A stretch of 51,596 bases of DNA, from positions 1-51,596 of IMG/VR virus record IMGVR_UViG_3300035144_000007, one strand, 5' to 3'. The position numbers were made by a program, and so were the translations under genes. Below the pieces are notes generated by a model, which saw only the letters and a list, made by a program, of their open reading frames with translations, ran no database searches and had not been told where the DNA came from. Source of the stretch: a virus (taxonomy: Duplodnaviria; Caudoviricetes). This document shows positions 2,771 through 47,704 of this stretch, one piece after another. Each line of letters begins with the position of its first letter. Within the stretch, counting starts at the first letter, position 1.

Positions 2771-3190
2771 ATGTCGAGATATAGAATTCATGAGCCGTTA
2801 TTGCTAGGTGAGGAGTCGGGGCATATCAGATTCAGGGAGGCGGCGATTGAGACGGCTCTCAAATCTCTGGATTGGTGCCCAGTTTTTATTTGTGATGGCA
2901 GTGTCCCAAACAGGCCGGGGGACATGCTTGTGGGATATGCCCGTGCGCTTAATAGCGGAGTTGTATTCTACACACTCCGAGAGTTGGATCATGAGAATTT
3001 GCGACCGTGGTTTAGCATGCTGTCTCAGATAGATATTGAGGAAAATCGAGATGTTGAGATTGACGGCAGGCTCGACAGTCGCCTTCACAAAATAGCCTAT
3101 ATCGGATTATTGTCGAGAGAGAACTGGGGTGGCTGGCTGGAAAAACTGAACGATGGCAATCTAGCCACTGATGGGTTGGAAAATGACTAG
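2771..3190 (+). CDS. Hypothetical protein, paralog 1 of a tandem triplet
   Basis: MSRYRIHEPLLLGEE...GWLEKL; GGAGG SD. Confidence 0.8.
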   Translation: MSRYRIHEPLLLGEESGHIRFREAAIETALKSLDWCPVFICDGSVPNRPGDMLVGYARALNSGVVFYTLRELDHENLRPWFSMLSQIDIEENRDVEIDGRLDSRLHKIAYIGLLSRENWGGWLEKLNDGNLATDGLEND

Positions 3191-3575
3191 ATATAGAATT
3201 CATAGTCCGTGGCTAAATGGTGAGGAGGCGAATGGTATCAGTCTATTGCCACCGGCAGTTGAGCGACTGAAGGCTGTTTCTATAAGTATCCCCGTTTTTT
3301 TGGGCGAAGTATCCATAAATGAGATTCCGCCAGAAAAATCTTACGGGAGAGTCGTCGACTATGAGGGCGATCTGGCGATTGAATTTGCACAACCAGTACC
3401 AGATAATATTGACAATCTCGCACCGTCTTTTTCTATCCGGGCACAAACTGGGGTGGGGGAAAACGAGGCCAACGTTGTCGAGAACGGGAAGTCATGTAGC
3501 CAATTCCTGGGTGTTGATTGTTTGTGTCTTGTTAACCAAGATAAATGCAATGGATGGCTGGAGAAGATGAGCTAA
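3183..3575 (+). CDS. Hypothetical protein, paralog 2
   Basis: MTRYRIHSPWLNGEEANGI...GWLEKM. Confidence 0.85.
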   Translation: MTRYRIHSPWLNGEEANGISLLPPAVERLKAVSISIPVFLGEVSINEIPPEKSYGRVVDYEGDLAIEFAQPVPDNIDNLAPSFSIRAQTGVGENEANVVENGKSCSQFLGVDCLCLVNQDKCNGWLEKMS

Positions 3576-4039
3576 TGCCGACATATAGGATACATAGTCC
3601 GTGGCTTTCTGGCGAGGAGGCAAATGGTATCAGGTTGCTACCATCAGCCATTGACAAACTGCGAGCAAGCGTACTTGGCAGGCCAGTCGCTGTGGGAGAT
3701 GGCAGGCAGCGCATTAACGAGAGTGATGTGGTTGGATGGGTACAACTATTTAAGGGCATTCCTGAATTTGAGACCGTGCCCGTTGTATTGATAATCTGCA
3801 ATCGCTGCGGATCGCCTTTACCAGTGATGAATAATTGTATTAGGTGCCACAATCCACTAGATGATCCCCTGGTGAATTTAAGGCCAGTATTTTGTATTGA
3901 GGTGAGAGTCTGTGAGCAGGATTCTGAGGACGCGAATGTTCTACAGGATAATATACTAGATGGCGAATTCATACGAGTGAGACACGTTTTACTTATTGAT
4001 AGCGCTGATTGCGCTGGTAGGCTAGAACGAATTGACTAA
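3575..4039 (+). CDS. Hypothetical protein, paralog 3, with Zn-ribbon insert
   Basis: MPTYRIHSPWLSGEEANGI...CNRC...CIRC...GRLERID; TAATG coupling at both ends. Confidence 0.85.
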   Translation: MPTYRIHSPWLSGEEANGIRLLPSAIDKLRASVLGRPVAVGDGRQRINESDVVGWVQLFKGIPEFETVPVVLIICNRCGSPLPVMNNCIRCHNPLDDPLVNLRPVFCIEVRVCEQDSEDANVLQDNILDGEFIRVRHVLLIDSADCAGRLERID

Positions 4040-6852: not shown

Positions 6853-8538
6853 GTGCCAACTCTCAGAGAAAGACTGTTTAACGCACTAATGCCGTCTGGC
6901 GTCAGGCGTGTGCTGGAGAGTGTCGAGGCGCAATTAGCTGAGCCAGGATGGATTCGTCTTTCTCCCTACGGGACTACTGACCTATCTGACGATCCGATTG
7001 TCCGTGAAGATGCGCTAGTCGCCAGTCGTCAATATCGCCAACGAGACCCCCTCTATAGTCGTGCAATCAGACTGACCAGAAATTACACGTTTGGTCGCGG
7101 CATATCCTGGCGGGCGGCTGATGATAAGGTCGGCGAGGTTATCCAGAAATTTTTGGATGATAAGGACAATTCTATCCTTGCGCGGGCCTCCGGCCAGTGG
7201 GAACTAGCTGACCGGCTGCTGGAGGACGGCGAACAGTTTTTCCCTCTCTTTGTCAATGCCTATGACGGCTCTGTGAAAATCTCCATTGTAGAGCCAGAAG
7301 AAATTCAGCGCATAATCACCCATCCCGAAAGCAAATATACCCCGCTCTATTATGAGCGGCAATGGACGTTACAGCCGTTCGATTGGCAAGCGAAGCAGTA
7401 CAGCGGGACTCGAATCATCACCGACTACTATCCTGATTGGTCAGTGCCAGAGACACAATTGCCGGAAACGGCAGAAGCGAGGCGGGCAGGGGCGCAGATT
7501 GCGCTAATGTCGTGCGAGCATTGCGGTGTAGCATTGCGCGAGGCCGTTCGCGAAGATTGCCCGAATTGCGGAGCAGAAATTACAGAGTCTCACGGTAACG
7601 ACCAAGACCCCAGCGGCACGCGGTACTCCACCGTCGCTGTATTCGGCGACACAGGCGAGCCTCTCACCTATGTCTACATGACGCAGTTGAAAGCTGGCGG
7701 TCGTGGGCTTAGGTCATTGCCGCCGTTTTACTCAGGCATCACCTGGGTTAAGGGCTACAAGGGATTTATGGAGGATAGGGCCACGCTAACGCTAGCCGGG
7801 GCGACGTTTGCGTTCGTCGCAAAAATCAAGGGCAATCTTGCTGCGGTGCGCCGAATGGCGTCGCAGTGGGGGAGCGCGACATTAGGGCGGTATGGCGGGA
7901 CTGGTGGGCGCGTGCGGAGAGAGGGCGCGCAAACGTTGATGGGGAACGAGGCATTCGACTTGCAACAAATGCAGTTTGATTCACGCGCCGGGAATGCCTA
8001 CCAGGATGGCCGAATGCTCCGCCAACAGGTAAGCGCGGCAACTGACATTACTGAGCCGGACCTGACCGGCGATCCGTCAGTAGGCAATCTTGCTTCGATG
8101 ACGGCGATGAATGGCCCTCAGCTGAAAGGATTTGAATCCTGGCAGCAGCTATTCAAAGATTTTTACACAGATGTTTTCGATTTCGTCATCCGAATGGCTT
8201 TGCTCCATGGTGACCTGACATTGATAGACGAGAATGGCAATGAGCGCGACTTGGCCGTCGAGGTTGACTTTCCTCCTATTATCCAAAAAGACCTTCCGCA
8301 AATTATCAGCGCAGTCGCCTCCCTCGTAAACGCGCAGGCCGCCTCCGGCAGAGAGTACGTCCCGCCGAAACGACTGGCGGCCTATATCCTCGAAGCGTTT
8401 GGGGAAACGGATGTGCAAATCGCACTTGAGGAACTGAACTTCGGTAAATTGCCGGAGATTCAACAGCTACCGGACGGGGCAGCAGATGCGCTTGATAATC
8501 TAGCAGCGGCATTGCAGGAGGCTGCCAATGCTCAGTGA
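6853..8538 (+). CDS. Portal protein
   Basis: 561 aa after terL; DGEQF and GD...GNLAS..AMN.P motifs; VEVDFPPI; AGGAG SD and GTG start. Confidence 0.85.
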   Translation: MPTLRERLFNALMPSGVRRVLESVEAQLAEPGWIRLSPYGTTDLSDDPIVREDALVASRQYRQRDPLYSRAIRLTRNYTFGRGISWRAADDKVGEVIQKFLDDKDNSILARASGQWELADRLLEDGEQFFPLFVNAYDGSVKISIVEPEEIQRIITHPESKYTPLYYERQWTLQPFDWQAKQYSGTRIITDYYPDWSVPETQLPETAEARRAGAQIALMSCEHCGVALREAVREDCPNCGAEITESHGNDQDPSGTRYSTVAVFGDTGEPLTYVYMTQLKAGGRGLRSLPPFYSGITWVKGYKGFMEDRATLTLAGATFAFVAKIKGNLAAVRRMASQWGSATLGRYGGTGGRVRREGAQTLMGNEAFDLQQMQFDSRAGNAYQDGRMLRQQVSAATDITEPDLTGDPSVGNLASMTAMNGPQLKGFESWQQLFKDFYTDVFDFVIRMALLHGDLTLIDENGNERDLAVEVDFPPIIQKDLPQIISAVASLVNAQAASGREYVPPKRLAAYILEAFGETDVQIALEELNFGKLPEIQQLPDGAADALDNLAAALQEAANAQ

Positions 8539-9412
8539 TGCCAGCCTAGCCGTTAGGGATATGCGACCGCTGACCTACAGGTCGCAGGCGCATAGGTTAT
8601 TATACGAGGCATCCGGTCACCAGGGCAATGCTGGCAAATTGGTTCTCCGAATAGTCCAGCTAGGATGGTGGGCCGGTGGTGGTGTTGGCATACCTCCACT
8701 ACAGTCAATGAATCTATCTCGGCGTGAGGGACAGTCTACTATTGATTTACTCCACGAGATCTACGTGATGGGCCACGACTACGCCGTTCTATTGGAGCAA
8801 TTGACGACGCCACAGCCGGCATTGAAAAAATCAGAGACCAACTTCGGTATCGGGTTGCGGAAAACCGCAATCAGATTGTGGCGAGGCCAGACGACGAAGG
8901 CGGAGTTTATCAACGCTTTTTGGTTCGGGGTTGAACGCGGATTGTGGCGGGCCGCGCTGGAGGGCATTGGTTCTCTTGGCTTCGCAGAGGATGAGTTGTC
9001 ACCAACTGAGGTAGCCAAGCTGAATTCTATCATTGACGCAACGCGAGCCTATATTCCCGGCCTGGCAGATTGGATCGAGCAGAATAGTCAGGCTAACGGT
9101 GGTGTATTCCAGTCCGTCACGAATCGAGTAACGCAGAACTGGGTCAATCGCTATCAGCAGGTTTTCCAGCAGGCCCAGGCGTTAGTCGGACGGGACCTGA
9201 AGGCAATGTGGACTTTAGGAATTGCAGAGCACTGCAAGAGTTGTCTAAAGCTGGCCGGGAAAATCCGCCGCTGGTCGTGGTGGAATGAACACGGGATTTT
9301 GCCGCGCGTCCCTGGGGCTGAGTATTTGGAATGTCGAGGTTACCGTTGACAATGCAGCTTGAAACCGACGACTGGTCAGTTGTCGCCGGGCAAAATGCCG
9401 AGACTGCCATAG
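8528..9412 (+). CDS. Head morphogenesis (MuF/gp7-like) protein, probably read through TGA 9347-9349 as selenocysteine
   Basis: W.LG.AEHC.SC motif and ECRGYR*QCSL; frame stays open 20 codons to TAG 9410-9412, just before the next gene's SD. Confidence 0.75.
9366..9385 (+). promoter_or_regulatory. Candidate bacterial SECIS hairpin
   Basis: CGACGACT-GGTC-AGTTGTCG; apical loop starts with GGU 24 nt after the UGA. Confidence 0.65.
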
Positions 9413-9419
9413 AGGAAAA

Positions 9420-10280
9420 ATGACGACGATAAATGCCGAGTCGTTATTAAAGATGATCGCCTGGATGCCAGGCGGATTTGCTATTGGTGAATTATATCCC
9501 GCGATAGATTTTAGAGCCGCCTCTGGTAGAGTACTCACAAGTCAAACGAACTGGCGAACTATTTGGCCCGCGAATAGTCTATATACATTTTCTACAACTC
9601 CAGAGAATATGTATGTATCATCATCATCCGCTGCTGATATTGGCCGTATTATATTTGTTGCTGGACTTGATGGAGAGTTTGGGAGAATATCTGGCTTTGG
9701 TATCACAAATGGACAAAATCAATCCATTGTCACTAGTCTGCCAGGGGCCGGTATCCCGCTAGAATTTTTTAGAGTTAATTTGGCCCTCGATGTTACCCTA
9801 GCCTTGAATAAGGCTACTGCCACAGGCAATATGTATATTGCTGCGCTAACCACGCCAGTTGGAGGCGTTCCGCCCGTGGCAGATACGAGGGCAATAATTA
9901 GCCAGGGAGAAAGCCGCTCATCCGCGATTGTGTATACCACACCGGCGGGATATATGTTTTGTCCGCAGTTTATTCTTTCACAGGATGGCAGCCAACAGAT
10001 ACAGGTACGGATCACTTCCTCTCCCATGACATTTTCTGGTAGTACATTATTGTATGCGCCAACGAGCGTGATACCGGTAGCTGTTACCATACCAGGTGTC
10101 ACGCGGACAGAATTTACTCCCCCGGCTCCAATAATAGCACAGCAAACAGATATTACTCTGGACGTTTTGGGCACGAGTCCGGTTAGCGGGACCTGTCTAT
10201 GTATCATGTCTGGCACACTCATTGATTATAGATATATCAAGAATTTGCGACTAGGTGGGGAGTCGCCATTTTTACCATAG
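9420..10280 (+). CDS. Putative virion structural/decoration protein
   Basis: Beta-rich, Ser/Thr/Gly-rich; located in the head module. Confidence 0.55.
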   Translation: MTTINAESLLKMIAWMPGGFAIGELYPAIDFRAASGRVLTSQTNWRTIWPANSLYTFSTTPENMYVSSSSAADIGRIIFVAGLDGEFGRISGFGITNGQNQSIVTSLPGAGIPLEFFRVNLALDVTLALNKATATGNMYIAALTTPVGGVPPVADTRAIISQGESRSSAIVYTTPAGYMFCPQFILSQDGSQQIQVRITSSPMTFSGSTLLYAPTSVIPVAVTIPGVTRTEFTPPAPIIAQQTDITLDVLGTSPVSGTCLCIMSGTLIDYRYIKNLRLGGESPFLP

Positions 10281-10292
10281 GAGGATTACATA

Positions 10293-12230
10293 ATGGAACT
10301 GAACGAAGTTGTCAGGAAAGAGGGGAATGTCATTGTTCTGTATTCTAAAGATGAATCGAAGGTGCTCGGTCGCTTCCCGTTTGGAGAGGGCGGGGAATAC
10401 GCCAGTGAGGAGACAGCGAGAGAGGCCGCCGAGAAGCGCGAGCGACAGATTCAATTTTTCAAGACGGCGGAGGGGAAACAGATGCTCCAGGAGAAAAAGC
10501 ACACGGCAAAGTGGCATCGTTGTTGGGATGCTGTGAAGAAAAAGGGATTCGCTCCTCGTAATGCGGCAGCTATCTGCACCTGGAGCCTTCAGCGCACAGG
10601 GAATGTTTACGAATCGCTGGGACTAAAATCTATGGAGGTGGCCCTTACGCTGGGCGATGCTCACGAAATTGATGAGACATTGGCAGCGCAAATGGAACTG
10701 GATAATATTGCCGCCCTGATTATTGATACCGATACCTGGCAGATACGCGAAGTGCCGGAAGGCAGCGATGAGGCATTGGCATTTGTGGTTGAGCCGGAAC
10801 TATTGACGACCGAGCCAACTGGATTGCCGGGAGTCTTGGTATCCGCTCAGGAGAGTGATACTCGGCAATTGACAGAGACGTGGGACCGCACAGACACGCG
10901 GGCAGAGATTGACGACGCGGGGAATCTTCGCGGCATTGTCGTTGTCGAGGGACTGAGTGCCAATGGCAACCATTACACGCGAGAGGCCCTGGAGAGTGGC
11001 CCCACAGTTTTTGCAGGCCGTCCGATTTATGCCGACCATCCGACGTTGACAGAGGAGCGCGACCGGCCAGAGCGGTCCGTTAGAGACCTCGTTGGACGAC
11101 TGCCAGAAGCGGCGTCTGATTTCTACGTCGAGAAAATTACAGAAGGCAAATTTGCAGGACACCACGCGCTCTATTATCGCAATGCAAAATTGAGCGAGAC
11201 CGCAGACTGGTTGCGAACGCTCATTAAAGAGGGGATCGCAGGAGACCAGTCGATAAACGCTGAGGGCCGTGGGCGGCCCGATGAGAACAGATTTGTTGTT
11301 GAGGCGTTCACCGCTGCTAGATCGTTGGATTTCGTCACGCAGGCGGCAGCGGGAGGACGTGGATTTGTGGAAGCGGAACGAAGCAATCAAGATGATACCG
11401 CTATGGATTCTCTGACTTTTGAACAGCTATGCGAAAGCCGACCAGATATCGTAGACGCAATAGGGCAACGGGAACGGCGCAAGGCATATGGTGAGAAGAC
11501 AGAGCTAAAGAAATTACAACAGGAGGTAACGATGAGTACGGAACTCATCAGAACAATGGAGGCGCGGTTGCGGACGCTGAAAAAGGAACAGCGGAAGGCC
11601 GACGCCGAGAAAGTCTTGGAGGCTGGATTGAAGGGCCAGCCCACGGCCGTTCAGAGTTACGTGCGGCAGCTAGTAGAGGCCGACGTTAAGCGATTCGTAG
11701 AACAGGAGGAGGAAGTCGCTCCGATGGAGCGACCTGGTGAACTCGCGCCAGTGGCTACGGACCTGGAACGCGGCGATGCGCCCAAGCTGGAGCTTCCGCC
11801 TGACGTGGGAGCACTGCCAGAGGAAGCGCAGGCGTTGTGGTTGGAGGCGTATACCGCTAATCTCCCCGACGGCGAGGAGACCGCAACCATCAAGGCGTGG
11901 GCGGCGGTATTCGATGCTGGATGGAAGCAGGACGAGGCAGGCGTATGGGTGAAAGCCAAGGTCGCTACTATTGCGCCAGTTGAGCCGGTAGAGCCAGAGA
12001 TGGTCGAACCGATGATGACAGAGGCGCAATTGAGCGGGCGCATTAACTCACTGATTCGTCAACGACGCGCCGAACTCGCTACCCTGACCGCAGCCGGACA
12101 GGTTCGCGGGATGGGCGGACAGGCTTCTACTGAATCGCAACAAAAAATCACAGAGGCGCGGCAAAAGCAGGCCTTCCTCGACATGGGACTGACAGAGGAA
12201 CAGGCCGAAATTGCTATGCGCGGGAGGTAA
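10293..12230 (+). CDS. Prohead protease/scaffold with internal ChaB-like domain
   Basis: G.S.NG..Y, YADHP, R.VRD.VG, SIN.G, SLDFV...AAGG protease motifs; coiled coil; LPEEAQALW...AWAAV ChaB-like segment. Confidence 0.8.
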   Translation: MELNEVVRKEGNVIVLYSKDESKVLGRFPFGEGGEYASEETAREAAEKRERQIQFFKTAEGKQMLQEKKHTAKWHRCWDAVKKKGFAPRNAAAICTWSLQRTGNVYESLGLKSMEVALTLGDAHEIDETLAAQMELDNIAALIIDTDTWQIREVPEGSDEALAFVVEPELLTTEPTGLPGVLVSAQESDTRQLTETWDRTDTRAEIDDAGNLRGIVVVEGLSANGNHYTREALESGPTVFAGRPIYADHPTLTEERDRPERSVRDLVGRLPEAASDFYVEKITEGKFAGHHALYYRNAKLSETADWLRTLIKEGIAGDQSINAEGRGRPDENRFVVEAFTAARSLDFVTQAAAGGRGFVEAERSNQDDTAMDSLTFEQLCESRPDIVDAIGQRERRKAYGEKTELKKLQQEVTMSTELIRTMEARLRTLKKEQRKADAEKVLEAGLKGQPTAVQSYVRQLVEADVKRFVEQEEEVAPMERPGELAPVATDLERGDAPKLELPPDVGALPEEAQALWLEAYTANLPDGEETATIKAWAAVFDAGWKQDEAGVWVKAKVATIAPVEPVEPEMVEPMMTEAQLSGRINSLIRQRRAELATLTAAGQVRGMGGQASTESQQKITEARQKQAFLDMGLTEEQAEIAMRGR

Positions 12231-26078: not shown

Positions 26079-26079
<1 letters not shown>

Positions 26080-26150
26080 TGAGAATCCTACAAATCATAA
26101 CCAACCTCTGGCTATTCGGTATCAGAATGGCAGAGGAAAACGGGAGGTAA
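26079..26150 (+). CDS. 23-aa peptide, copy 1 (MRILQIITNLWLFGIRMAEENGR)
   Basis: TAATG coupling; paralog at 26427 differs by many synonymous changes. Confidence 0.7.
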
Positions 26151-26151
26151 G

Positions 26152-26430
26152 ATGGAACTGACAGAAAATCAACTGGCGTTTGTGAATGCTGCGCTGGCAT
26201 GTGAGGACGTGCAGCGATTTATCAATGATGTATGGTGGCCACTCTATGACATCTGGCGTGAGGAAGGTAAGCTGCCCCAGGTAGAAGGAAATCCGCATGC
26301 ACCGACGTTGCTATTTGCACTGTGTGGCTATCCATTTGCAGTCAGGGACGGCCTTGAGGAAATGCAGAACGACCTCGACGGCGTGATTGAAAAACTGCGC
26401 GATGATACGGTAGACAATCCGTGGCTATGA
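26152..26430 (+). CDS. Hypothetical protein (92 aa)
   Basis: GGAGG SD. Confidence 0.75.
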   Translation: MELTENQLAFVNAALACEDVQRFINDVWWPLYDIWREEGKLPQVEGNPHAPTLLFALCGYPFAVRDGLEEMQNDLDGVIEKLRDDTVDNPWL

Positions 26431-26498
26431 GAATCCTACAGGTTATAATTGACTTTCTGCTCTTTGGTGTCAGAATGGCAGAGGAGAATGGACGATAG
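26427..26498 (+). CDS. 23-aa peptide, copy 2 (MRILQVIIDFLLFGVRMAEENGR)
   Basis: ATGA coupling; same length and stop position as copy 1. Confidence 0.7.
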   Translation: MRILQVIIDFLLFGVRMAEENGR

Positions 26499-27072
26499 AA
26501 CAACGACGCTGATGCTGGCCGGTGTTCCATTCGTGATATTGGTCGGCATTGCATCACAGGCCGCCTCAATATGGTTGTGGGGGCCAGCACATCAATTCTC
26601 CTATTGGTACACAGGCTTAATGGTTGTGCTACTTTTCATAAACTTTGCCGCCTTGATTCTACATTGTAGGGGGAGAACGAAGGCCGGAGTTCTGATAGCA
26701 GCCTGGGCCGGTCTCCTCTGTATATTCGCGATGGTTGTCATAGATGCCATAGAGAATACAAGCGACGGCTATCCCTGGGTGATTCTCACTCTCTATCTGG
26801 CGACCTATGCGGTAGGTGAGGTGGTTGGCGGCAGAATGTCCCTAACCTACTCGCTCGCCTGCGGCATTGCGCTATTGGCAACGGGGATAATGCAACGTAG
26901 AATAGATGACACACTGCCGCTCCTGCTCGTTCTCCTGCTCGTTACTGTGTGGTCGCGGCGGTCTCATAACGTAAGCGAGCGGTTACGTGATACAAGCGAG
27001 CGACTACAAGAGTATAGAGAGGCAATCCAGGTAGTAACTGATGGCAGACGGGGACATTCAAGAACTGACTAA
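26488..27072 (+). CDS. Polytopic membrane protein (~6 TM) with C-terminal coiled coil
   Basis: GAGGAG SD before ATG 26488; alternating hydrophobic helices. Confidence 0.8.
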   Translation: MDDRTTTLMLAGVPFVILVGIASQAASIWLWGPAHQFSYWYTGLMVVLLFINFAALILHCRGRTKAGVLIAAWAGLLCIFAMVVIDAIENTSDGYPWVILTLYLATYAVGEVVGGRMSLTYSLACGIALLATGIMQRRIDDTLPLLLVLLLVTVWSRRSHNVSERLRDTSERLQEYREAIQVVTDGRRGHSRTD

Positions 27073-27574
27073 AGCTATTCGGCATGACAAAAACCTTCGC
27101 GTTGCCGAGGTAAGAGCACAGCGGAGAGTAGCCGACATGCTACAGTCATTGCTTGAGGCATTTGAGAAAAGTTGCCAGCAAGACAATGGAACCACCGAGG
27201 AACTTAGGAGAATACGAGAACAGCACGCGGAGATAATAAGTGGCATAAAGGCGGTACTGCTTTACATCGCCGCTGATAATGCCGAGGAGAGGCGAGCAGC
27301 AGAGAGATACAGGGAGAAAATCAACGGGCTGGCATTCGGAGAAAAATCGCCCAAGTCCCCGCCGCTATCCCCCGCGCAAATCCGCCGCGAGTTGACCGAC
27401 CGCGTAGACGAGGAGGAGTTGAGGACACTTTGCTTTGATTGGGGGATAGACTACGATAGTCTGCCTGGTAAGGGGAAGGCAGCAAAAGTCAGGGAACTGG
27501 TAGCACAGGAACAGAGACGGGATGGGGTGGGGCGGTTGCGTCAGTGGCTAGAAACGCAAAAAGCCCCGGACTGA
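27041..27574 (+). CDS. Coiled-coil protein with C-terminal effector-associated domain (EAD7-like)
   Basis: EEELRTLCFDWGIDYDSLPGKGKAAKVRELV motif. Confidence 0.75.
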   Translation: MADGDIQELTKAIRHDKNLRVAEVRAQRRVADMLQSLLEAFEKSCQQDNGTTEELRRIREQHAEIISGIKAVLLYIAADNAEERRAAERYREKINGLAFGEKSPKSPPLSPAQIRRELTDRVDEEELRTLCFDWGIDYDSLPGKGKAAKVRELVAQEQRRDGVGRLRQWLETQKAPD

Positions 27575-33637: not shown

Positions 33638-33768
33638 TACAACAACTCCAATTGCTCTGGTTCCTCTCGTCTCTCTACCGGCATCGGTAGCGGCTTCTGT
33701 GCTCGCACCTTCGCCAGCCGCCTCTCCGTCATCTCCAGATAGTCACCGAGCAACAGTTGAATAGTCAT
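33637..33768 (-). pseudogene. 43-aa internally deleted DNA methyltransferase remnant
   Basis: MTIQLLLGDYLEMTERRL...EQLELL joins a typical MTase N-terminus directly to a typical C-terminus. Confidence 0.6.
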
Positions 33769-34526
33769 GCCGCCTCAAAGTAGTCAATCTGTAGCAGTGG
33801 GTCTACCACCGTCCCCGCCCGCCATCCCATCACACAAAGCGACCGCTTCCAATACGGCGGGGTCCAGGCCACTAACGTCGGATTCTGTAACCACGGCACT
33901 CCTGTCGATTCGCTGGCGGCAGAGGGGGTATTTCTAATGAGCGCATCGTCGTCAATGAAAATGTCGTGCCCTGTCCAGTCGGCGGATTCGATCTCCCAAC
34001 GATCAACTTGCCCGAATCCGATGGAGCGATTTTTGCCCATAAATTTTATGCCGCCTAGAAGCCTCTCGATCCACTCTGCGTTACCGATGATGCGCGCTTG
34101 CCATCGGTCACAAACTGCGTTAGGTACTGGTATGCGCCGGTCTTTCCACCGCCCCTGCGACGGCCTGTTCTGTCGCCCGCTAGACCACCACCCGTCCAGC
34201 GTCCGCTTGTGACGGTATGTTACATCCTCGACAATCTCCGCATCTGGTAGAAAAACGGAGGAGTACCAAAGCGGCCGACCGTCCTCGGAGAACCAGGCTG
34301 CCTTCAGCGGCACCGGCAACCAGTATCCTTCGTTCGAGTTCGGCAATCCTCTGTTGTGGCCAAATGCCATGTCCACGACGGCACGGGACAGAACACTATC
34401 CAAGTGAATCGGATCGTAATTGACTACCCGCGCGTTTTTCACCATCACTGCGGTAACGGTAAGCGGCTCAAATGCCAATGCTCCAAATGCGGCGGTATAC
34501 TGTTCCAGTTCCGGTAACCTTATCAC
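33765..34526 (-). CDS. csf3: Type IV CRISPR Cas5-like RAMP (Csf3)
   Basis: PL.VTA, IHLDSVL, PVPL, G..K..R.P, G...I..LL..I..MGK.RSIGFGQV..W.IE G-loop; GGAGG SD and GTG start. Confidence 0.85.
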   Translation of the reverse strand: MIRLPELEQYTAAFGALAFEPLTVTAVMVKNARVVNYDPIHLDSVLSRAVVDMAFGHNRGLPNSNEGYWLPVPLKAAWFSEDGRPLWYSSVFLPDAEIVEDVTYRHKRTLDGWWSSGRQNRPSQGRWKDRRIPVPNAVCDRWQARIIGNAEWIERLLGGIKFMGKNRSIGFGQVDRWEIESADWTGHDIFIDDDALIRNTPSAASESTGVPWLQNPTLVAWTPPYWKRSLCVMGWRAGTVVDPLLQIDYFEAA

Positions 34527-34527
34527 G

Positions 34528-35151
34528 TTAACCTCCGTATGCCTCAAGAAATGATTGTGATTTTCTTCTGCCGTATCTATGATTAAGTAGGCTATCTGTA
34601 TCTCTATGCTGAACCTGCGATGGTACAAAAACGAGGATTTTTTTCTTGAGCATAGATATACAAGAGCCAATCATTAGATCGTAGGCGTCATGGTGCTCTG
34701 GATGTTCCGAGTACCATGAGGGAGCATAATCTAAAAATGACTTGACGATGTGTGGTTTTATCGCCAGGCAGCATATTCCATAAAATTGCTTTGGGGCAAC
34801 TGTTCTAAAGTAGAAATTTTCTTTTACCACATCTTTCTTACTATTGCTGTAAAATGTAACCGCTGCCACTTTTTCAGAATTCGCATCATCTGATTGCAGT
34901 GCATTGGATACACACTGACCGAACTCCGGCGATAGCATAATGTCATCTTCGAGATATAAAATCCATTGCACGGCGTGGTTGATAACCATACCGAAAATGC
35001 GATCTCTATTTTGCCTTGCGGTTTCGTTTTCGCGCTGCAATCCGAGTATAACTGGGGCCGGGAATTGCTGTTGTAATTGCATTAGTAACTCGCATAGTAT
35101 TTTCCCGCGTTTTTCAGGTACGGTTGGTATTACAATGAGATAGTCGTTCAT
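34528..35151 (-). CDS. GT-A glycosyltransferase-like protein
   Basis: IVIPT, WILYLEDD, D..IG, PSQVQH...S motifs. Confidence 0.75.
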   Translation of the reverse strand: MNDYLIVIPTVPEKRGKILCELLMQLQQQFPAPVILGLQRENETARQNRDRIFGMVINHAVQWILYLEDDIMLSPEFGQCVSNALQSDDANSEKVAAVTFYSNSKKDVVKENFYFRTVAPKQFYGICCLAIKPHIVKSFLDYAPSWYSEHPEHHDAYDLMIGSCISMLKKKILVFVPSQVQHRDTDSLLNHRYGRRKSQSFLEAYGG

Positions 35152-35903
35152 GTGAATCTCCTTACTTCTGGGAAGCGATATGCAAACTCATTGAATAACT
35201 CTGGCCATCCGCGTCTCAGGATTGCCCATCGTCCCCATCGGTGCTTTGTCTCTCCGGCCCAGTACGAGAGACGGCAATCCTCAAGCGGCAGTCCCATCTC
35301 AAACTGTTTATCGTAGGCAGCACAATAGTCAATACTATTGCTCAGAATATACGCCCACACATCCTCAAATGTCAAATGACCAATAGGCCAAAAGACATGT
35401 ACTCCATGTTGTTTCGAGAAATGAATAGGGCCGCGCACTCTCAAGTTCAAATGACGACCGCCGCTTTCCTCTGAGCGCAAGCCAACAAATGAGCCATCAA
35501 AACTATATCGCTCTAGGAGTGCCTTTATTGGTCTATAGACCGTACTTCTCATTGTCTCCATTTCGCAAGCAGGAGAAGTTGGCCCTCCCATCCTCTCCAT
35601 TGTGTCAAGAATAGGCTCTGTTTCAAAGATGATTATATTTTTGTGCTCGCCATATCGCTCCAGTAAATCTTTGCTCTCAGGAAAAACTGCTGCTGCATCA
35701 AAATAAACTGCCGGTATCTTTGGCGATTGTCTCCATATCAAATCAGCCATTACTACACTGTCTTTGCCGGTTGAAAAAGCAATATATGGACTTTGAGACA
35801 CTCCTAATGCTTCGGCAATGGTTTGTTGTGCTCTCTCAATCCGTCTTTGATATGCCGCAGACATAGAATGTGACAAATAGGCCACTTTGTCAATTTGCTT
35901 CAT
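35148..35903 (-). CDS. cysH: PAPS-reductase-family (CysH-like) protein of type IV-B loci
   Basis: AFSTGKDS PP-loop, GLRSEES..R, PI......DVWAYI.....Y..YD. Confidence 0.9.
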   Translation of the reverse strand: MKQIDKVAYLSHSMSAAYQRRIERAQQTIAEALGVSQSPYIAFSTGKDSVVMADLIWRQSPKIPAVYFDAAAVFPESKDLLERYGEHKNIIIFETEPILDTMERMGGPTSPACEMETMRSTVYRPIKALLERYSFDGSFVGLRSEESGGRHLNLRVRGPIHFSKQHGVHVFWPIGHLTFEDVWAYILSNSIDYCAAYDKQFEMGLPLEDCRLSYWAGETKHRWGRWAILRRGWPELFNEFAYRFPEVRRFT

Positions 35904-36178
35904 TACAAAAGAATCCTTCTATATCTATAATCATCTATATTTTGAATCACTAATCCACCATTTTGACGGTATGGATACAATCGCCCCTTCTCGTCCTCCC
36001 ACAACAACAATGAGAAATGCTCCAATGTTGGTAGTAGGCGGTGAACTACTGTCCTACTGAAGCCTGTTATTCTAGCAATGTCTGCCTGTCTAAGCCCAGG
36101 ATTATCCTCTACGATTGAATACATGTATCGTGCTTTTTGCCTGGTCATAGGCCAGTAGTTCCCCCACCTGCTACCCAT
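35903..36178 (-). CDS. Winged HTH regulator
   Basis: NPGLRQADIARITGFSRTVVHRLLPTLE. Confidence 0.8.
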   Translation of the reverse strand: MGSRWGNYWPMTRQKARYMYSIVEDNPGLRQADIARITGFSRTVVHRLLPTLEHFSLLLWEDEKGRLYPYRQNGGLVIQNIDDYRYRRILL

Positions 36179-36182
36179 TGCT

Positions 36183-37619
36183 TTACGTCACCACAACTGA
36201 ACTGGACCCCAAAGTCCCGCTGATTATCCACTCTCGCAGTTGCTCGGCATTCTCGGTCACATAGTCGATGTATTGTTGCTCCTCGCCGTTATCGTCCAGT
36301 CGTGTGATCCATTCTGCCGTGACGTGGCCGTGACCACGTGCGGATTGACCGGCAACGACGGAGATACCATTAAGATAGGTGCTTAGAGCAACCATCAACG
36401 CACCCTTGGTCATCACCGTCGCCGTTGGCCTTAGGGAAAAACGGGTAAAAATCTGCGTGCCCTGGGCCAGCGTCTCGTAGTTGTAAATCATCTGCCCCGC
36501 TTCCTTTTTCTCCCCCTGACTGATTGCCTGGCGCGTTCTCGTAGCATCATCCAGCATGTCAAACGCGCTCATTCTGGCTCGCGCCGTATCCTGTAACGAT
36601 TCTGGTAGATTCTCTGCATTCTCCTTGCATACCAACCACGCTGATACTGAGAGGCTAGATTCGCCAATGTCGAATTTGTCAGTGCAGCCTCCGACCAGAT
36701 CGAGGTGCGGGAATGCTTCACGGATTTCTCCAGCTAATTTCCACGCATTTGAGGGAGCCTTCGCACCAGATTCGATATTCCCACCGTTATCAAAGATGCC
36801 CTCCGCCCCCTGGCTGATTTCTCCCTTGTTCCGTTGCGCTGGCGCAATGCTCAGGGCATTTGCAAGGAAAATCCACCCTGGAGCACGTACCATCTGATGG
36901 CGGATCGTATTTGCCGAGATTGCGGGGACCTCAATGATCATCACGTCATCAGCGACCGCGAGACCATCGGCTCTGTACTCTGCCACCGTTTCAACCTGCG
37001 GATTGAATACGCCATCAAATGATAGTACATAATCCTCTGACTGATTTTTCATTTGTCCATGCCAAATGTAGGCGATGCTTACCAATGATGTGACATTATC
37101 GGCAATCGTTTGCAGAATTGAATACTGGATTGAGCGGGGGAACAGCCAAAACATGGCTATGGCTTCATTGTCTTTCATAAAATGCAATGGGACATTCATG
37201 TTCGTTGTTAGCGACGACCAAAACGAATGCAATGTCGAATGTGATATAGCTGCATTTTTGGCGCGATCTCTTAGCATACCGTATCGACCAACACCGGAGA
37301 ATAGCCCAGCCCCGTCTTTGCTATTGTATACATCTATGAATTGCCGGAGAACCGCCGTGGCGATAAATTCAGGCAGTGTCAGTTGTTTCGCCAACTCTCC
37401 AACCATCTCTGTCATTGGATTGGCGGCAAGAAGCGCATCAAGGAGCTTGGGACTGATAGGCTGGTCGTCAACCTCTCGCCTGACCATTTGTTTCTGACGA
37501 TTGAACGTCAGGCGGTTGGAGCCGTCGCCCGTGGCGGGGTCGTGGTGGCTGATAGGCTCCGTTGCCGTCAGCAAAAGATCGGCGGATTCAACTTGCGGAT
37601 AAACTATTACTTTTGTCAT
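36183..37619 (-). CDS. csf2: Type IV CRISPR Cas7-like backbone (Csf2) with ~180-aa internal insertion
   Basis: A.EPISH, VPAISANTIRH, F.NGG, R..FP.L.L.GG, TR, QMIY..E.L..G, G.SARGHG motifs. Confidence 0.9.
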   Translation of the reverse strand: MTKVIVYPQVESADLLLTATEPISHHDPATGDGSNRLTFNRQKQMVRREVDDQPISPKLLDALLAANPMTEMVGELAKQLTLPEFIATAVLRQFIDVYNSKDGAGLFSGVGRYGMLRDRAKNAAISHSTLHSFWSSLTTNMNVPLHFMKDNEAIAMFWLFPRSIQYSILQTIADNVTSLVSIAYIWHGQMKNQSEDYVLSFDGVFNPQVETVAEYRADGLAVADDVMIIEVPAISANTIRHQMVRAPGWIFLANALSIAPAQRNKGEISQGAEGIFDNGGNIESGAKAPSNAWKLAGEIREAFPHLDLVGGCTDKFDIGESSLSVSAWLVCKENAENLPESLQDTARARMSAFDMLDDATRTRQAISQGEKKEAGQMIYNYETLAQGTQIFTRFSLRPTATVMTKGALMVALSTYLNGISVVAGQSARGHGHVTAEWITRLDDNGEEQQYIDYVTENAEQLREWIISGTLGSSSVVVT

Positions 37620-38344
37620 TTTTCCCCCTCATATTTTTGTGCGATTATCATCGCGATTTTGAACTCGTTTGTGTTTCTGACTCGCTGTAGATATTTCTCG
37701 TAATCTGTTGTCGCTTGCGCCCCAATCACCTCTATAGTTTTGTGGTCGCTATAGAGACAACTGGCAATAATCGGCTTTACAAATCCATAGGTATATACCT
37801 CCTCGAAAACGTCAAGAATCTTTAGCAATTTCGGCCACCAGTTGACTTGTAACACGTCAAAAATGCCTTGTTTCATATCGTGAACCAGAATCTCTGTGCT
37901 CTCACCTAGAACACCAACACGACCACGCGGCCAGATTCGCTTCTTGAAGTCGGTCGTGAGAATCATCACCAGCCGCTGACCTTCCCGCTCCGGCCATATC
38001 TCGCGCACCAGATCAGACCAGCAAGCCCGCTCTTGTTTCTGCGCCTCTTTCCTGGCTACAAGAGGATGATAGTTAGTACCATCCTCAAAAATGAGGCGGC
38101 TACCCATATTCCAGGAGCCTTTGAACGCCCTCGCCGCTGATTCTGATAGCCATTCGCTAGAATAGCCTTCGAGTAAGTCGAGATATTCCCCCGTCGATTT
38201 GCTGATAATATCCTGGACGGGATAGCCTTCTTCTATCGCTGCACCAGTGATAGCACAGGTTGCTCCGCCATCAATCTGTTGTGGTGGATTGTCCAACTCT
38301 GGCAATCCGATACCGTAAGTGAGGAAATCCGCTATGTTATTCAT
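37616..38344 (-). CDS. csf1: Type IV CRISPR Cas8-like large subunit (Csf1)
   Basis: N-terminal degenerate Zn-finger (CAITG...LSESAA), T..KK.IW motif, C-terminal R....F.IA..IAQK; first gene of the csf operon. Confidence 0.65.
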   Translation of the reverse strand: MNNIADFLTYGIGLPELDNPPQQIDGGATCAITGAAIEEGYPVQDIISKSTGEYLDLLEGYSSEWLSESAARAFKGSWNMGSRLIFEDGTNYHPLVARKEAQKQERACWSDLVREIWPEREGQRLVMILTTDFKKRIWPRGRVGVLGESTEILVHDMKQGIFDVLQVNWWPKLLKILDVFEEVYTYGFVKPIIASCLYSDHKTIEVIGAQATTDYEKYLQRVRNTNEFKIAMIIAQKYEGEK

Positions 38345-45786: not shown

Positions 45787-45815
45787 ATTGTACATTATTT
45801 CCCCTCGGTTGTCAA
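45787..45815 (-). promoter_or_regulatory. Sigma70-type promoter for the C4/rep unit
   Basis: TTGACA-17 nt-TACAAT. Confidence 0.8.
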
Positions 45816-46187
45816 GTCTCTCTGCGTGATGGCGATTGATATTTGTAGTAGAGGCAGAGCATAGTCTGATAGCCAATCAGTCAACAGATCGTAGTGGTTT
45901 ATCATATCATCCGCTTTTAGCTCCCTCGCTGCCTTGGCTAGATTGACTGGCAATATTAAGGGATAGCCACGCATTTTGTGATCATCATCGTCAGGGGTTA
46001 GGTTTATAACCTCGCGATCTTCAATTGCACAGTATTCTCTTGCATTTTCATTTGTATAGATATGCAAATATACTCCTGGGCTAGTGGTGCAGTATTCACA
46101 GCCAGGGTAGATTTCTACGGCAATTGTGTAATCGCCTATTCTTAGTATTTCTTGTGGGTCACAATTATTACAGCCACATTCGCCCAT
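45795..46187 (-). CDS. Hypothetical protein
   Basis: GGGAG SD; Cys motifs. Confidence 0.7.
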   Translation of the reverse strand: MGECGCNNCDPQEILRIGDYTIAVEIYPGCEYCTTSPGVYLHIYTNENAREYCAIEDREVINLTPDDDDHKMRGYPLILPVNLAKAARELKADDMINHYDLLTDWLSDYALPLLQISIAITQRDLTTEGK

Positions 46188-46603
46188 TGTCTATCTCTCC
46201 CTTAGTTTCATCCCCGCTTCCTCCGGCGTCACTGATTTCTCCTCGGTTGTCAAGGTCTCAGGTCAAATGTTATGCTTGTCATATTTGGCCTGTCTTCCAT
46301 CCAACAACGCACCCATTCAATCTCATTTGCTGTGGTCTTTTCGACTGTCTGTATAAATCCCTCAAAGCTACGGCACATTATTCCTCCCCGGTTGTCAAGT
46401 CTTTCGCGATTCCAATTCCAGCAATAGCCGTCGCAGGAATGCCGCGCATTCATCGTGCTCGACGGCGATGTAGCCGCGTATCTCGTTGAGTTCGGGATAA
46501 TCCTCGCGCTGCATAAATATAATGAAAGTGACGCAGTTATGTTCCACTGTCGCCTCCAATTCACAGCCGAAACCCGTTCCCTTCTTCCGTTCAATATGGT
46601 ATC

Positions 46604-47074
46604 TCATTCCGCCCTCAATTCAACCCAAGAATCCCTTGCGCCCCCCGGTCTATCTTGCGATAAACCACCTACGCTGATTTTTGATGGATCATTGAAAAGA
46701 GCGGCGTACAGGCGGCGCAGGCCATCTTTGACGCCCTGCCAATAAAAGGTGTCCCGCCCGCTCCCGGCCTCTCTAGCCTCATCCTGCATTATTTTGGCAT
46801 GTATTTCTAGCTGCTGGTATAATTCAAATTCATTGTCCATCTCTATTATCTCTGCCAGCAATCGCCGGATGAAACCCATACAGACGTTTCTTATTTCCTC
46901 GTCGTCCCGTATCATTGGTGTTGTTAGCCACCAGGACAGTGGCGGGATATGCTCAATTGGGAATTCGTCACTCTCGCCGTGGTCCACGCCATAGGCGCAG
47001 TGCGGACAACCTTCGTTGTCTGGTGCTAGCTCATCATTACATCCTGGACAAAAACATCGTTCTAAAAAGTCCAT
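46604..47074 (-). CDS. Zn-ribbon hypothetical protein
   Basis: AGGAGG SD; CPGC..CPHC. Confidence 0.7.
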   Translation of the reverse strand: MDFLERCFCPGCNDELAPDNEGCPHCAYGVDHGESDEFPIEHIPPLSWWLTTPMIRDDEEIRNVCMGFIRRLLAEIIEMDNEFELYQQLEIHAKIMQDEAREAGSGRDTFYWQGVKDGLRRLYAALFNDPSKISVGGLSQDRPGGARDSWVELRAE

Positions 47075-47419
47075 CTCTACCTCCTAAATAAAAACGCGCT
47101 CTAGGCTGTGCCGCTTGTCTCAGGATCATCATATTGATAATATGTACCCTTTTCCTGATCCCGCATATCAGGGACAGAGTACAACCCTCGTGTTTTTGTT
47201 TCGCAGAGCACATCGCCTAACTCCCCGCGCGTATATCTATCATTGAACTCCTGAAAAAAGTCTTCGCGATAGAAGCCCAATTTGCCCATATTTAGGGTTG
47301 TCTCAACCAGGTTTTCAAATTCTGTGTCTGTCATCCTCTACCCCCGCGCAGGAAACGGCCATAATAGCGATATAGTCTTACGTCATTCCTTTGGCATATC
47401 GAGCATTTGTGGTGTTGCA

Positions 47420-47704
47420 TTATTTCTCCTCGGTTGTCAAGTCCACTTTGTGCCACCAGGCCACCTCGTGGAGTAATTGATGTGGTATTACGCCGCCGTT
47501 GCGCTCGGCCCTGAGCCGCATGTATCGCTCGGCTTCCTCTTCTGTATCGGCTGAAGCAAATATGCGGTGCGCCCTGCCAACAGTGCGGTCAAATATACCG
47601 CATCTCCAGGGCAATGCGTCACCGTTTCCTTCCAGCCTCGCCATAAAATCATGTTCTTCTTGCAATCGCTCTCGTTCTCCTGAATCCATAATTCTCCTTT
47701 TCAA
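47420..47704 (-). CDS. Hypothetical protein
   Basis: AAGGAG SD before the MDSGER start. Confidence 0.6.
   Translation of the reverse strand: MKRRIMDSGERERLQEEHDFMARLEGNGDALPWRCGIFDRTVGRAHRIFASADTEEEAERYMRLRAERNGGVIPHQLLHEVAWWHKVDLTTEEK

Follow-up and report, generated by a model that had tools for sequence, protein, structure and literature searches.

An in-frame TGA codon in the predicted minor head gene of a tailed phage is probably decoded as selenocysteine by the host. The gene, of a MuF/gp7-like type, would encode a protein of 294 residues in which the TGA, at codon 274, supplies the first position of a UxC motif. Because this codon occupies the place of a conserved cysteine and is followed by both a conserved tail and a hairpin, the host likely reads UGA as selenocysteine. 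Such a reading had been put forward in a preliminary description of this DNA. It is now well supported, as a prediction from sequence, by the pairing of Cys and TGA among relatives, the recurrence of TGA, the tail and the hairpins of the SECIS type, and the protein is a candidate phage selenoprotein.

The gene, its surroundings and the kinship of its product

The window, that is, the whole stretch of DNA analysed, is an entire virus record of 51.6 kb with a terminal repeat of 124 nt, and it is siphovirus-like. Its late genes are of the siphovirus type and follow in the order terminase, portal, TGA-containing gene, a gene of unassigned function, protease, capsid, connector and tail genes (Table 1). 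The reading frame that begins at 8528 runs through LECRGYR to the TGA, continues past it for 20 codons (QCSLKPTTGQLSPGKMPRLP) and ends at a TAG (9410-9412), 7 nt before the ATG of the next gene. The preliminary description had reported this arrangement, the position of the TGA at the first Cys of a terminal CxC and an 8-bp hairpin with a GGUC loop beginning 16 nt past the TGA. The coordinates confirmed the frame and the gap, alignment with relatives confirmed the position, and the hairpin was found in its place.

Table 1. Positions of the gene, its features and other loci in the window
Feature	Position	Strand	Remarks
Portal gene	6853-8538	+	phrog_10963, E 2e-43; its TGA stop overlaps the start of the TGA-containing gene
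MuF/gp7-like minor head gene (predicted), full length with TGA read through	8528-9412	+	294 aa; 273 aa if TGA stops
HCKSC motif (His235, Cys236, Cys239)	9230-9244	+	First half of the Cys cluster; no variation at Cys236 and Cys239 among 126 aligned sequences
Cys269	9332-9334	+	One relative, L048, has TGA at this column
In-frame TGA, codon 274	9347-9349	+	First Cys of the terminal CxC; predicted selenocysteine
Conserved 20-codon tail with TAG end	9350-9412	+	Cys276 at 9353-9355; 12/20 residues agree with the consensus of 70 Cys-form tails
Hairpin, 8 bp	9366-9385	+	Loop GGUC at 9374-9377; -8.7 kcal/mol; meets the published bacterial SECIS model
Next gene, function unassigned	9420-10280	+	phrog_8198, E 1.1e-05; GAGG stretch resembling an RBS directly after the TAG
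Csf3-like	33765-34670	-	E 2.9e-08, below cut-off
CysH/PAPS reductase	35148-35903	-	In the CRISPR-like cluster
Csf2-like	36183-37619	-	E 2.4e-07, below cut-off
Possible Csf1	37616-38344	-	In the CRISPR-like cluster

Neither tRNA genes, including those for suppressor or selenocysteine tRNAs, nor Rfam matches were found in the window, and a Pfam scan of 56 of its ORFs revealed no selenium-pathway family. Several other loci were recorded. The head protease gene (10293-12230, plus strand) encodes a protein of 645 aa that has a ChaB-like domain and an additional region at its N terminus. A Type IV CRISPR-like cas cluster is carried on the minus strand (33765-38344), and no CRISPR array was present among the 20 largest repeat families of the window. 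The repeat loci at 45792-47447, 3182-3661 and 26079-26491 comprise a repeated motif of 20-31 nt near small early genes, and among them are two neighbouring gene pairs with duplicated 5' ends.

The product of the TGA-containing gene matched no Pfam, NCBIfam or PHROG model, and the PF04233 and TIGR01641 models matched neither this protein nor 23 aligned members of its family. The gene lies directly downstream of the portal gene, and portal matches were likewise found upstream in L001, L002, L004, L034 and L180; gene position right after the portal is the basis on which the MuF superfamily was widened, according to PMC5576092. In an hhalign comparison with a six-sequence gp7 alignment whose members match TIGR01641, an E value of 5.5e-4 was obtained, with a probability of 30% over 46 columns. 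In this comparison, the CxxC and CxC motifs of the two sets coincided, and codon 274 fell on the first C of CRC. A structure model computed with Cys at position 274 had a mean pLDDT of 88.8, with values of 93-97 over the last 30 residues. Among its 50 viral fold matches, 27 carried a function name, and 23 of these 27 were minor capsid or head morphogenesis proteins (best named E 7.5e-4); no solved structure was matched by sequence or fold. Gene position, motif alignment and the fold matches of the model place the protein as a probable distant MuF/gp7 relative and a predicted minor head component, not as a member of PF04233. The earlier label "MuF-like" stands in the sense of distant kinship, but not in that of a match to a database model.

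A role in virion assembly, which had also been proposed, found no support: SPP1 gp7, the studied relative, affects infectivity and is dispensable for assembly (PMC6316719). As described in PMC6316719 and PMC5576092, that protein binds the portal and has a copy number of one or two; of SPP1 virions without it, only some 25% are infectious.

In two relatives of the window protein, L205 (1474-3474, minus strand) and P0029, its domain is fused to the portal protein. Inteins were observed at the HC of the HCxxC motif in P0049, P0050 and P0084, and probably in P0047. Inteins often sit at functionally critical sites.

Alternation of Cys and TGA among the relatives

Two protein searches, one giving 22 matches and the other contributing the best 150 of 686 matches, provided 169 related proteins for comparison. 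In this best-match set, columns 274-276 were CxC in 136 proteins, 14 proteins ended exactly before column 274, and the remaining 19 differed otherwise at these columns. The stop codon is known from DNA for three of the 14 truncated proteins; one of the 14 is the window's own gene call, and two are L006 and L019. None of the 169 proteins stopped before Cys276, and one (P0156) stopped before Cys269. The Cys at column 274 was lost through deletion in two relatives, P0114 and P0165.

At the DNA level, codon 274 was TGT in 37, TGC in 30 and TGA in 5 of 72 rows (71 loci and the window, duplicates included), and pattern scans added two TGA forms, L094 and L350. There were six distinct TGA274 sequences: the window, L006, L019, L069, L094 and L350. 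In the 46-50 residues preceding the codon, the five others shared 38-63% identity with the window. Homologs with TGY and homologs with TGA at this codon, which the preliminary description had named as a check on its reading, were accordingly both found. Measured against the consensus of 70 tails of the Cys form, the tails of the TGA forms had 10-16 of 20 residues in agreement (12 in the window); the Cys forms themselves had a median of 13.

On a tree of 214 sequences and 175 columns, which was built without L069 and L350, the stop forms were scattered over about seven places, and parsimony required 8 changes for the stop state. A figure of some seven origins is an estimate, because the deep nodes of the tree are weak. 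All nine members of the window's clade (support 1.0; 75-84% identity) were stop forms, and stop and Cys forms were mixed in the sister group. The single-protein viral scan found no DNA of this close clade.

In L048, the TGA was found at Cys269 (2433-2435) instead of at 274, and it was followed by a passing hairpin with the loop AGUU. Together with the end of P0156, this makes Cys269 a possible second selenocysteine position. A viral pattern scan for TGA at Cys269 returned 19 matches, none of them real.

An alignment scan of genomes for homologs gave no match. A pattern scan of genomes gave 80 matches, and L180 was the only apparent real homolog among the matches listed, the other 79 being left out before counting. 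No TGA form turned up when the family was searched for in bacteria, namely in 145 genomes of Anaerolineales, 401 of Anaerolineae and 5 others that matched the terminase.

Classical gp7-type genes were also scanned. In five distinct genes (L243, L244, L266, L296/L317 and L298), TGA took the place of the first Cys of HPxCRC, and 2 of 9 and 4 of 66 matches of the two scans were real. In the matched control, TGA at the second Cys, 1 of 14 matches was real and had no hairpin; 2/9 versus 1/14 does not discriminate. L266 and L298 passed the hairpin test described below, and L244, whose frame runs for about 100 codons past the TGA, narrowly failed it. Counted without a Cys denominator, these genes are only suggestive of selenocysteine at the first Cys of classical gp7 proteins.

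Hairpins behind the TGA codons and other readings of the codon

The consensus for bacterial SECIS elements given in PMC13188914 comprises a loop of 3-9 nt, a stem of 4-16 bp, a G in the first two loop positions, a spacing of 16-37 nt and an energy of at most -7.5 kcal/mol. The test used here was our own coding of that model and not bSECISearch. It was written, from the published model, after a looser hairpin score had separated the two forms weakly (P = 0.027, 4 versus 76), with one chance locus included and L094 missed.

In the window, the stem starts 16 nt and the loop 24 nt past the TGA, and the pair probabilities are 0.85-0.97 in a context of 140 nt. By itself this fold is ordinary (z = -1.64; equally stable in 14 of 200 shuffles), and the hairpin's weight comes from the comparison with relatives. 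Among 82 distinct sites, 3 of 5 TGA forms and 3 of 77 Cys forms passed the test (Fisher P = 0.002, an optimistic value because the TGA forms are related to each other); by the geometry criteria only, the counts were 4/5 and 9/77. L350, which was discovered once the test had been fixed, also passed, with an 8-bp stem and the loop GUC. TGA together with a passing hairpin was thus present in 4 of the 6 TGA forms, the window included; L094 failed the test, and L006 missed the energy limit (-6.3). As a positive control, the TGA-containing selD genes of Anaerolineales were used; 23 of 24 passed, with loops of the form A-GGUN-CUG, which the window loop, U-GGUC-A, resembles. In the window itself, 2 of 26 other TGA stops and 94 of 1628 TGA triplets passed.

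Synonymous recoding (1000 trials) gave an equally good hairpin in 2.5% of cases for the window and in 0.8-3.6% across the window, L006, L019, L069, L048 and L350. L006 and L019 had identical codons at all six hairpin positions, whereas their upstream synonymous codons differed at 55 of 87. This silent-site conservation was seen in that one pair. Because the hairpin registers differ between lineages, the comparison gave no covariation evidence for the hairpin. The differing registers fit separate origins. Cys-to-Sec switches in phages of Sec-using hosts appear to have arisen repeatedly, each with its own hairpin.

The conserved tail is compatible with read-through of any kind. Cys or Trp might be inserted at the UGA, either because termination is leaky when a C follows or because a SelC*-type cysteine tRNA reads the opal codon. 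A C directly follows the TGA in 5 of the 6 TGA274 forms, and some anaerobes have opal-reading Cys-tRNAs that mimic tRNA-Sec (PMC5389517). However, the hairpins agree with the SelB-type model and look like the selD loops of Anaerolineales, and no suppressor tRNA was found in the phage. Moreover, the SelC* carriers listed in PMC5389517 are Firmicutes, Thermodesulfobacteria, Nitrospirae and Proteobacteria, Chloroflexota being absent from the list, and all of these genomes possess the complete Sec machinery. Trp would be unlikely to work at a Cys column. Decoding as Cys or Trp is considered unlikely.

If the TGA were a true stop, a one-base change from Cys would have been tolerated in a dispensable protein, leaving a product of 273 residues and a hairpin present by chance. 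One substitution turns TGY into TGA, SPP1 can assemble without gp7 (PMC6316719), P0114 and P0165 have dispensed with the same Cys, and a passing hairpin follows about 6% of the window's TGA triplets. The stops, however, cluster at one column, with none at Cys276 or in the tail; the tails are intact; a clade of nine sequences at 75-84% identity keeps the stop; and the hairpins are over-represented among the TGA forms and show silent-site conservation. True termination is therefore regarded as very unlikely.

Although the window comes from a metagenome contig and was compared with contigs rather than raw reads (a second contig, assembled separately from the probable source run at depth 13, was identical over 8400-9700, an agreement at contig level that is not independent), an error of sequencing or assembly, or genome-wide recoding of TGA, is extremely improbable, since the same stop occurs in independent records and TGA, the commonest ordinary stop of the phage, ends 27 of 65 hand-picked ORFs, including the portal gene that overlaps the next start, which rules genome-wide recoding out.

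Possible hosts, proposed mode of action and known systems

L180, a homolog of the Cys form, lies on an uncultured Anaerolineales contig; its genome has selA, selB and a TGA-containing selD, and tRNA-Sec was not found in it. In Anaerolineales, selD was over the cut-off in 65 of 145 genomes, mostly with one in-frame TGA. Among 401 Anaerolineae genomes, G466 has selA, selB, a TGA-containing selD and tRNA-Sec, and it carries a related prophage (capsid 50%, portal 46%, tail tube 41%). The post-portal gene of this prophage (L336, 12616-13350) had no detectable homology to the TGA-containing gene; it keeps only a stretch resembling W..E.CxxC and lacks the terminal CxC. DNA matches to the window at 65-91% identity, mainly in the terminase, were present in 12 of the 401 genomes, including the unpublished G479, and no CRISPR spacer-like matches to the first 20 kb of the window were found among the 401. 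The window also encodes a protein with the effector-associated domain EAD7 (27041-27574, plus strand; PF19960, E 2.1e-15), a domain common in Chloroflexota. Anaerolineae as the host class is a lead and not a result, because just this class was searched, with these queries, and binned phage contigs may be misplaced.

Under the selenocysteine reading, host SelB and Sec-tRNA would bind the hairpin during late-gene translation and recode UGA274, and decoding would yield a Sec-Gln-Cys motif in the 294-residue protein. Sec274 would join Cys236, Cys239, Cys269 and Cys276 in a cluster that, judged by conservation, probably binds a metal or forms a redox pair. Termination at UGA274 would remove two of the five cluster positions and the tail. 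By analogy with SPP1 gp7, the protein would enter the head at the portal, a few molecules per particle, and aid infection; so low a copy number would limit the selenium cost.

On the simplest view, selenocysteine is a functional stand-in for Cys and not a sensor. In hosts that use Sec, it may confer an advantage or be a near-neutral swap. L180 retains Cys at codon 274 although its genome has selA, selB and selD. The link to selenium status that the preliminary description had drawn was unsupported by any of the tests made here. A broader proposal is that selenocysteine at the terminal CxC arose repeatedly across the MuF/gp7 superfamily and is built into particles, the balance of Sec insertion and termination setting the share of virions with the full-length protein, so that infectivity would track host selenium; this proposal is rather unlikely.

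If the decoding of UGA274 as selenocysteine is correct, phages put the selenocysteine code of the host to use in their own structural genes. Full-length expression would then be tied to hosts with selABCD, which would provide a sequence marker for host prediction. Databases would truncate such proteins, as in 14 of the 169 of the best-match set. A likely non-enzymatic, virion-type family would be added to the 119 catalogued families, which mostly handle redox reactions or metals, and the repeated Cys-to-Sec switching at one ligand would point to a key residue of MuF/gp7 proteins.

No phage or virion selenoprotein is named among the 119 families in Table 1 of PMC13188914, and four deep-Sep supplements of PMC12013277 held no phage, morphogenesis, virion, capsid or MuF entry. 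The literature searched, which left subscription journals and bioRxiv supplements outside, likewise contained no phage selenoproteins. With the bacterial selenoprotein genes described in PMC13188914, whose SECIS lies in the coding region, the window gene shares an in-frame UGA at a Cys column with Cys homologs, a small G-containing apical loop 16-37 nt downstream, and the UxC motif, which occurs in two catalogue families. Unlike the catalogued bacterial genes, it is phage-encoded and stands in a head module. Viral UGA codons read as Sec by the host are known from the glutathione peroxidases of poxviruses (molluscum contagiosum and fowlpox; PMC8310308). Those are captured host enzymes of eukaryotic viruses, whereas the window gene would be a native phage gene with a SECIS of the bacterial type.

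With MuF/SPP1 gp7 (PF04233, TIGR01641), the window protein shares the gene position directly after the portal, the alignable pattern W..E.CxxC..L.G ... CxC and the occurrence of portal fusions in its family. It differs from them in having CxGxx in place of the HP of the HPxCRC motif, a distinct SxGxxPxLP tail and no toxin extension.
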